NCBI GenBank assembly: GCA_965203275.1
Contig: OZ241865.1
Span: forward strand, 1,920,001 to 1,984,000
Source: Bdellovibrionales bacterium
GTDB lineage: Bacteria; Bdellovibrionota; Bdellovibrionia; Bdellovibrionales; JAUICD01
DNA: 64,000 bases
Direction: 5' to 3'
Numbering within the stretch: the first letter of the stretch is position 1; each line of letters starts with the position of its first letter. Shown here piece after piece: positions 40,095 through 40,451 of this stretch. Below the pieces are notes generated by a model that ran no database searches, was not told where the DNA came from, and worked only from the letters and a program-made list of their open reading frames with translations. Made by a program: the position numbers and the translations under genes.

Positions 40095-40168
40095 TTTCTT
40101 GACTTTTTTATAAAATTTCTTGACTTTTTTATAAAATTTCTTGACTTTTCTTATAAAGATGCTATTCT
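40095..40168 (+). promoter_or_regulatory. Triplicated 21-bp unit containing TTGACT; the last copy forms a sigma70-like promoter
   Basis: TTTCTTGACTTTTTTATAAAA x2 plus a variant; TTGACT(40141)-N16-TATTCT with an extended TG. Confidence 0.6.
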
Positions 40169-40180
40169 ATCAAATAGACG

Positions 40181-40242
40181 ACCCCTACTTACTCGGGTAG
40201 GGTGCGAGGTTATGGCTAACTTAGCTATAACCTCTGCTTTTT
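40181..40242 (+). ncRNA. Candidate two-hairpin leader RNA upstream of NYN gene (copy 2)
   Basis: CCCTACTT-ACTC-GGGTAGGG, TGC, GAGGTTATGGCT-AACTT-AGCTATAACCTC, TGCTTTTT. Confidence 0.6.
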
Positions 40243-40259
40243 ATAAAAGGTTTTGAGGT

Positions 40260-40451
40260 TTGAAAACAATTGTTTATGTGGATGGTTTTAATCTTTATTA
40301 TGGTTGTTTGAAGGGAACTACCTATAAATGGCTTGATTTGTTAAAGCTATCAAAATTTTTATTACCACAACACAAGATTTTAAAGATTAAATATTTCACT
40401 GCTAAAGTTTCATCTCGATTTTATAATTCCCATAATCATCTGAAAGGTTAA
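40260..40451 (+). pseudogene. Truncated NYN (PIN-like) RNase, N-terminal third
   Basis: VYVDGFNLYYG..YKWLDL..KIKYFTAKV then a stop; the C-terminal acidic motifs are missing. Confidence 0.82.

Follow-up and report, generated by a model that had tools for sequence, protein, structure and literature searches.

In the type III toxin–antitoxin (TA) systems ToxIN, CptIN and TenpIN, which are found on plasmids and prophages, a promoter, an RNA, a terminator and an RNase gene follow one another in this order; the RNA is a repeat array placed before a separate terminator and the RNase has a ToxN/MazF-like fold (Blower et al., PMC3401426). The HEPN-fold nuclease AbiF is likewise preceded by a promoter, a short structured RNA (AbiFr/RCd22) and a terminator, with read-through into the RNase gene (10.1101/2025.04.15.648962; PMC12737573). 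RCd22, which contains two repeats of its motif, neutralises the nuclease in trans as well as in cis (10.1101/2025.04.15.648962). The DUF3800-I, drum and skipping-rope RNA motifs lie beside genes of the DUF3800 domain (Weinberg et al., PMC5737381). As for the NYN fold, a CRISPR-associated protein of Bacteroides fragilis that trims crRNA (PMC11346440) and MARF1, which acts in eukaryotes, both have conserved aspartates needed for RNA cleavage, and neither appears in that account with a dedicated neighbouring small RNA of the kind described here.

A single-protein NYN/PIN defence candidate with a MARF1-like NYN fold, HEC-09 (Hma-embedded candidate 09), has been catalogued by Payne et al. (10.1101/2024.01.29.577857). 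According to that preprint, HEC-09 gave no phage defence in E. coli and is not among the constructs listed as toxic; its main text on HEC-09 mentions no RNA, the terms “ncRNA” and “non-coding” occurring 0 times. One HEC-09 was cloned with ~150 bp of upstream DNA where possible, so the construct may have included an RNA.

Here we describe a conserved two-hairpin sequence, predicted to be a ~60-nt RNA with its own promoter, which accompanies genes of the HEC-09 type. Two copies lie in a 64,000-nt stretch of a Bdellovibrionales bacterium genome (contig OZ241865.1, positions 1,920,001 to 1,984,000; hereafter the window). A sequence-only reading of this DNA had likened the arrangement to type III TA. 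The order of promoter, RNA, terminator and RNase gene is indeed found in 66 of 88 loci, and the genes are carried on plasmids and a prophage, but no tandem repeat array precedes a separate terminator and the RNA is inverted in 22 of the 88. The nuclease fold is NYN/PIN instead of ToxN/MazF-like, the orientation of the RNA is free, and a pseudoknot is not indicated by the folding, which covered nested structures. Because of the missing repeat array and the different fold, the NYN-RNA pair is not a member of the ToxIN/CptIN/TenpIN group, and its layout resembles AbiF/RCd22 and the DUF3800 motifs more than classical type III TA. It differs from AbiF in its nuclease fold, in the single RNA unit of most loci, in the frequent placement of the RNA on the opposite strand and in the absence of a match to the Rfam abiF motif RF03085. 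It has the genomic signature of the DUF3800 motifs, but the neighbouring domain is NYN and the RNA is shorter and simpler. The protein is the one already known as HEC-09, as judged by a full-length profile; its RNA partner appears to be new.

Two predicted RNAs ahead of two broken nuclease genes

The whole predicted RNA of copy A (40176..40246, + strand) comprises a C-rich 5′ end, hairpin 1 (40183-40202), the terminator-like hairpin 2 (40204-40237) and a U-tract (40238-40242). Copy B (12276..12343, − strand) is built of hairpin 1 (12336-12315), which is the one with a UUCG loop, the terminator-like hairpin 2 (12313-12285) and a U-tract (12284-12280). The folds of both copies are more stable than those of all 200 shuffled sequences (z −5.21 for A and −5.17 for B), and both second hairpins score as terminators in a terminator scan. 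The sequence-only reading, which had placed such an element ahead of each NYN gene, with a terminator-like end and with G-U on the coding strand as the only stem mismatch, is borne out by both copies. Copy A has an extra G ahead of TGC, and at the foot of hairpin 2 a GC/GC pair is conserved, together with a bulged base.

The sigma70-like promoters proposed for the two RNAs fared differently. Promoter A (40141..40168, +), with TTGACT, a 16-nt spacer, TATTCT and an extended −10 TG, passes the scanner at 9/12 and its position is kept in homologues. Promoter B (12349..12377, −; TTGATT, 17 nt, TAACTT) is present in the sequence but is weak, its 8/12 consensus positions placing it under the scanner cut-off; promoter-like sites occur near chance level in such AT-rich DNA (4 vs 2.1 expected). 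Upstream of copy A, a promoter duplication is the sole tandem repeat: a 21-bp unit that includes the −35 box of promoter A occurs three times (40095..40157, +; period 21, 3.0 copies, 97% matches).

A covariance model built without sequences from the window finds the copies at 48.2 bits (B; E 3e-14) and 42.0 bits (A; E 4e-12), the next match in the window being at 7.7 bits. In the whole 2.57-Mb genome nothing beyond these two exceeds 14.6 bits, and the sequence pattern of the initial reading occurs there exactly twice, both times preceding an NYN-like gene. No other NYN-like genes were found in this genome by tblastn with the NYN pieces of the window.

Both of these genes are broken, as had been read from the sequence. 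Gene A (40260..40451, +) is a 63-aa 5′ stump of a HEC-09-like NYN/PIN gene with a TTG start at 40260; homology is lost past residue ~52-68, the frame stops at 63 aa, and the C-terminal half is absent from the 2.57-Mb genome. In gene B, a frameshift near 12045-12049 separates an N-terminal piece (12033..12258, −; GTG start at 12258) from a C-terminal piece in another frame (11618..12049, −), which holds the acidic motifs EEKGSDVN and SNDSD. One database protein (P0001) shares 96% identity with this C-terminal piece and consists of that piece alone, which suggests that the break is real. The fragments have no Pfam match; judged by homology, they are broken pieces of the HEC-09 type.

The window is rich in defence genes and contains Gabija, restriction-modification, HEPN-MNT, ParE, Fic and TIR-like genes. 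Right after the NYN stump lie two HEPN-type (NTase_sub_bind) genes and a nucleotidyltransferase (40453-41828, +), and promoter A may drive the first HEPN-type gene, with transcription reading past the terminator of the RNA. Further along the same strand are a GajA/GajB pair (43430-47774), whose GajA frame has ~220 additional N-terminal residues ahead of the profile match, a DUF4145 protein with a weak PD-T7-4 match (47798-48601) and a match to a TIR-like effector (48662-49648). Three frames on the − strand (51416-54331, 12561-13226 and 35888-36958; 971, 221 and 356 aa) have no Pfam or NCBIfam match. Two pairs of equal-length frames (136 and 125 aa) at 18547-20500 (−) are possible tandem duplicates, and the two of them that were scanned have no Pfam match. 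At 9726-10382 long open frames overlap on both strands, a pattern that often marks a low-complexity repeat.

Decay of the same kind is seen in relatives of the window: both NYN genes of one genome (G001) and one of two in another (G011) are broken, and orphan RNAs are present in G001 and G004. One locus of G011 (L006) combines a frameshifted gene with an RNA that has lost hairpin 2. The RNAs of the window are likely survivors beside broken nucleases.

The HEC-09-type protein

Intact homologues are ~205-220 aa long. Three of them (P0002, P0004 and P0021) match the PADLOC model HEC-09 (PDLC04163) over its full length with E 3e-38 to 1e-44, and P0002 matches Pfam NYN (PF01936) at 28.7 bits, the cut-off being 24.2. 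No NCBIfam match was found for eight proteins, and nothing significant was found in the PDB by sequence. The predicted structure of an intact homologue (pLDDT 91.8) has VPA0982 and the NYN domain of MARF1 as its nearest folds. Four acidic residues, D9, D115, D140 and D142 in the numbering of L068, are 99-100% conserved in 88 proteins, and the pI is above 9 in 78 of the 88 homologues. A metal-dependent RNase activity is inferred by analogy with NYN relatives (PMC11346440). The family is large, with 1,788 protein clusters at E <1e-30 and an estimated ~5,500 stretches of the genome collection with the motif patterns.

Some homologues are annotated as 6-hydroxy-3-succinoylpyridine hydroxylase (nicB/hspA). 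Two such NicB/HspA-annotated genes (L120:1869-2918 and L129:1659-2691) encode an NYN domain fused to DUF2384 (Xre/MbcA/ParS C-terminal), and a weak RNA variant lies upstream of each. HspA, a related NYN+DUF2384 protein, has been purified in recombinant form (PMC6122326), so a protein of this architecture can at least be produced. In the prophage prophiGD43A-1 (MW584179), the unannotated gene 6 between integrase and repressor (L125:3279-3967) is an NYN gene of this type; a convergent RNA is found there at 57 bits.

Conservation and covariation of the RNA

Starting from the protein, we took 80 genome loci, the best of 575 related ones in a genome collection, together with 10 viral loci; the 80 are related to one another and not independent. 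The covariance model was made from 37 same-strand homologous copies. Each of the 80 genome loci, among them the 46 held out from the seed, is matched by this model: 76 reach at least 29 bits, and four score 12-17.5 bits where the element is expected; enrichment of the motif beside NYN homologues, which had been set as a check on the sequence-only reading, is thus observed. Eight of the ten viral loci are matched, and in the two misses the gene is at the start of the contig with no upstream DNA. The hosts belong to at least 12 bacterial phyla (11 on tree labels, plus Spirochaetota).

The nested structure has 19 pairs. In the model-fitted alignment 95.3% of the cells are paired, both sides change in 18 of the 19 pairs, and covariation is 0.544, against 0.198 in shuffled and at most 0.09 in slid alignments, two controls that leave the relatedness of the sequences in. 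A plain MAFFT alignment of the seed gives similar values (93.1% paired, double changes in 15/19 pairs, covariation 0.530). Stem cells contain 135 G-U and 17 A-C combinations, and the loop of hairpin 1 is UUCG in 58 of 84 copies. This G-U bias and the UUCG loops point to a structure that acts as RNA on one strand. Similarity between RNAs follows similarity between their proteins (Spearman 0.37, permutation maximum 0.17). Rfam 15 gave no match in the window, at the motif in 20+20 homologous loci, or by E-value at one strong copy.

Model matches of 20-28 bits in related genomes are mostly plain terminators without an NYN gene, and for this reason a 29-bit line was adopted; true variants of the RNA also score under it. 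Weaker-scoring variants with the same two-hairpin plan are found at plasmid homologues in Gamma-, Beta- and Alphaproteobacteria. One of them, on a Rhizobium plasmid (L130:1080-1154, −; 10.8 bits), is inverted ~850 bp upstream, with a 170-aa gene between RNA and NYN. An NYN subfamily with a CxxC..C/H insertion (L202, L203, L204, L206, L235 and L246) has its own two-hairpin variant in both orientations. Tandem RNA copies, mostly promoter+RNA units, occur at L034 (three copies), L019, L059, L089 and L099. Of 24 expression runs for a prophage copy (L096), one contains the stretch; seven raw-read runs gave 0 reads, and in a contig-only run (X1) the two flanks have similar depth, with a break at 2501-2544, within the 5′ half of the RNA, where DNA carry-over may contribute to the coverage.

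Arrangement of RNA and gene

The RNA is placed in three main ways: upstream in sense at 66 of the 88 loci, downstream and convergent at 13, and upstream and divergent at nine. Examples are Erythrobacter dokdonensis (L024) for the sense layout, the Paenarthrobacter plasmid pYJN5-4 (L117) for the convergent one and an Acidobacteriaceae locus (L018) for the divergent one. Convergent hosts are Actinomycetota, one unlabelled bacterium and three viral contigs, and divergent hosts are Acidobacteriota and one viral contig. A fourth layout, downstream on the strand of the gene, is seen at L153. The divergent group is one clade (96% support). The convergent group implies two changes on a quick tree that leaves 38 of 84 branches open, and a single origin is possible. 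Inverted RNAs recur beside more distant NYN proteins (L233, L246, L203 and L235).

A TAnnnT −10-like site is found at the right distance from 47/68 sense, 11/13 convergent and 9/9 divergent RNA hits, compared with 213/4200 random positions; with an added TTG at −35 spacing the counts are 38/68, 7/13 and 7/9, compared with 28/4200. In convergent loci the 3′ end of the RNA lies −5 to +19 nt from the stop codon (12/13), and in divergent loci a −10-like site of the gene lies between RNA and gene (7/9). At five loci (L018, L021, L028, L051 and L057) the RNA and the NYN gene have −10-like sites that overlap, one on each strand, so their promoters may compete.

On the opposite strand, as in 22 of the 88 loci, the element cannot be part of the leader of the NYN mRNA, and the mix of layouts excludes attenuation or antisense pairing as the general function. 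Its placement on both sides of the gene and on both strands makes it likely that the element acts as a free RNA. All layouts share a structured RNA, predicted to be made beside this one gene.

Co-occurrence in sampled genomes

Two samples of 101 genomes yielded 37 NYN loci at E <1e-25, one of which has no upstream DNA. At the other 36 the RNA is matched by the core model in 26 and weakly in seven (10-26 bits, expected place); in three, a two-hairpin element is found only by a model-free hairpin rule, which was framed after viewing the sequences and fires in 7/54 control windows. Ahead of six distant NYN genes with a matched start, the RNA is absent in all six.

In the reverse direction, an RNA-first search of 454 sampled and five chosen genomes, in which only 34-150 candidates were scored per genome, gave 57 further matches: 27 lie by intact-looking genes, nine by broken genes, one is cut by a contig end and 20 have no gene within 1.5 kb. 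The neighbours of these orphans are mixed, with some toxin-antitoxin genes, and no second recurring partner family was found among the 74 of 139 neighbouring frames that were scanned. Of the 19 orphan-bearing genomes, nine, mostly drafts, have no match to the protein profile, and five have an intact close gene elsewhere. Four Acidobacteriota (L182, L185, L187 and L189) share an intact orphan RNA at one site before a convergent creD, with no NYN gene near; DUF456 lies upstream in three of the four, and at L186, which has upstream DNA in common with them, the NYN gene is still there. tRNA genes within 3 kb (10/60 loci) are not a fixed partner.

At one locus (L081) hairpin 1 is lost and the promoter kept, beside a near-complete 201-aa frame with a short deletion ahead of the SNDSD motif. 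In these samples, the genes keep the RNA and the RNA outlives the nuclease, as predicted for an antitoxin pair.

Discussion

We have high confidence in the RNA as a genuine, conserved partner of these NYN genes, whatever its role. As to that role, we lean towards a type III-like antitoxin that would bind and inhibit the predicted NYN/PIN RNase. The sequence-only reading had proposed an RNA antitoxin or an attenuator. The linkage at 80/80 loci, the covariation, the promoter-like site that the RNA usually has and the RNA's survival past broken or lost genes favour the former, and the opposite-strand loci remove the latter as a general role. In the antitoxin scheme, a constitutive promoter would drive the RNA, whose 3′ end would be at hairpin 2. 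In the sense layout rare read-through would give the NYN mRNA, leaving the RNA in excess, and attenuation would be a side role confined to this same-strand layout; in the inverted layouts the NYN gene would have its own promoter. The basic NYN protein may recognise the conserved stem junction, formed by the CCC/GGG base of hairpin 1 and the bulged GC/GC pair at the base of hairpin 2. Loss of the RNA supply, through loss of the element or shut-off of transcription by a phage, would free the nuclease and result in addiction or abortive infection. Against an antitoxin stand the negative HEC-09 screen, the recombinant HspA, L081 and the frequency of orphans (20/57), which at the four Acidobacteriota sites and in the nine genomes without a profile match could have a role that does not need the protein. 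Genes of defence islands often decay, so the broken genes are weak evidence of toxicity.

The main rival, which we consider unlikely, is a non-toxic ribonucleoprotein in which the RNA partners NYN in trans, not as an antitoxin but as a scaffold, cofactor, sensor or dedicated substrate. Linkage, orientation and covariation fit it equally well, a role of this type has been left open for the DUF3800 RNAs, and the preprint on HEC-09 notes no toxicity on induction (10.1101/2024.01.29.577857). The parallel similarity of RNAs and proteins also agrees with it, and shared inheritance would explain that too. Such a complex predicts neither the one-way dependence, by which genes keep the RNA and the RNA is often without a gene, nor a terminator placed, as in the majority layout, between promoter and gene; there is also no variable single-stranded guide segment, the variable part being self-paired.

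The other readings are less probable still. A role confined to limiting NYN expression in cis, as an attenuator or autoregulatory 5′ leader, would suit the 66/88 loci where a terminator hairpin lies directly upstream on the same strand, but we hold it improbable: the placement is not that of a leader in 22/88 protein-first and 11/37 RNA-first loci, where the structure is conserved and the promoter-like site usually kept, and no switch is predicted. An antiterminator switch was considered and is unsupported, as at least 80% of the pairs persist in the read-through fold at 51/58 sense loci. Type I-like pairing of the RNA with the NYN mRNA is very improbable; overlap with a 3′ UTR could occur where a convergent RNA ends near the stop codon, but it is impossible in sense loci, 7/9 divergent loci have the gene's −10-like site between RNA and gene, and duplexes with the cognate coding sequence are energetically no more favourable than those with GC-matched others (40/84), which leaves antisense pairing unsupported. 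Equally remote is a DNA-level or generic feature (the end of a mobile element, a cruciform, or a plain promoter and terminator), in which case NYN would be a passenger or have a metabolic function as an enzyme. Plain terminators do reach 20-28 bits with the model and some homologues bear the hydroxylase annotation, but the G-U bias, the UUCG loops, the mere two strong matches in the whole genome and the absence of the element before the distant NYN genes disagree with it. For the metabolic reading, HspA has the extra DUF2384 domain, which may account for its activity (PMC5499597), and is not nicotine-induced according to a review.

In a full-text literature search, outside which most subscription papers lie, no account of an RNA linked to NYN/HEC-09 genes turned up, nor any paper pairing NYN with an RNA antitoxin. 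In the supplement of Fremin 2021 “NYN” occurs five times in one table, two of these rows being candidates mostly within one family of gut or oral bacteria.

Returning to the antitoxin reading, orphan RNAs could serve as decoys against incoming elements. It is possible, and we put it forward tentatively, that every HEC-09-type NYN has its own short RNA, with an RNA gene free to flip and duplicate and RNA variants that follow the protein subfamilies, making up a widespread class of RNA-controlled PIN-fold nucleases. The RNA would then be the missing component of a catalogued and unexplained defence candidate, and it may explain the negative phage screen of HEC-09. Known PIN toxins are restrained by protein antitoxins. 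If the proposal is true, an RNA antitoxin would be a new pairing for PIN toxins, the first we could find for the PIN superfamily, and NYN with its RNA would be a second AbiF-like pair of nuclease and RNA, a type that can give rise to RNA-guided nucleases. Because the RNA is small and culturable hosts carry natural cis and inverted versions of it, the question can be tested directly.
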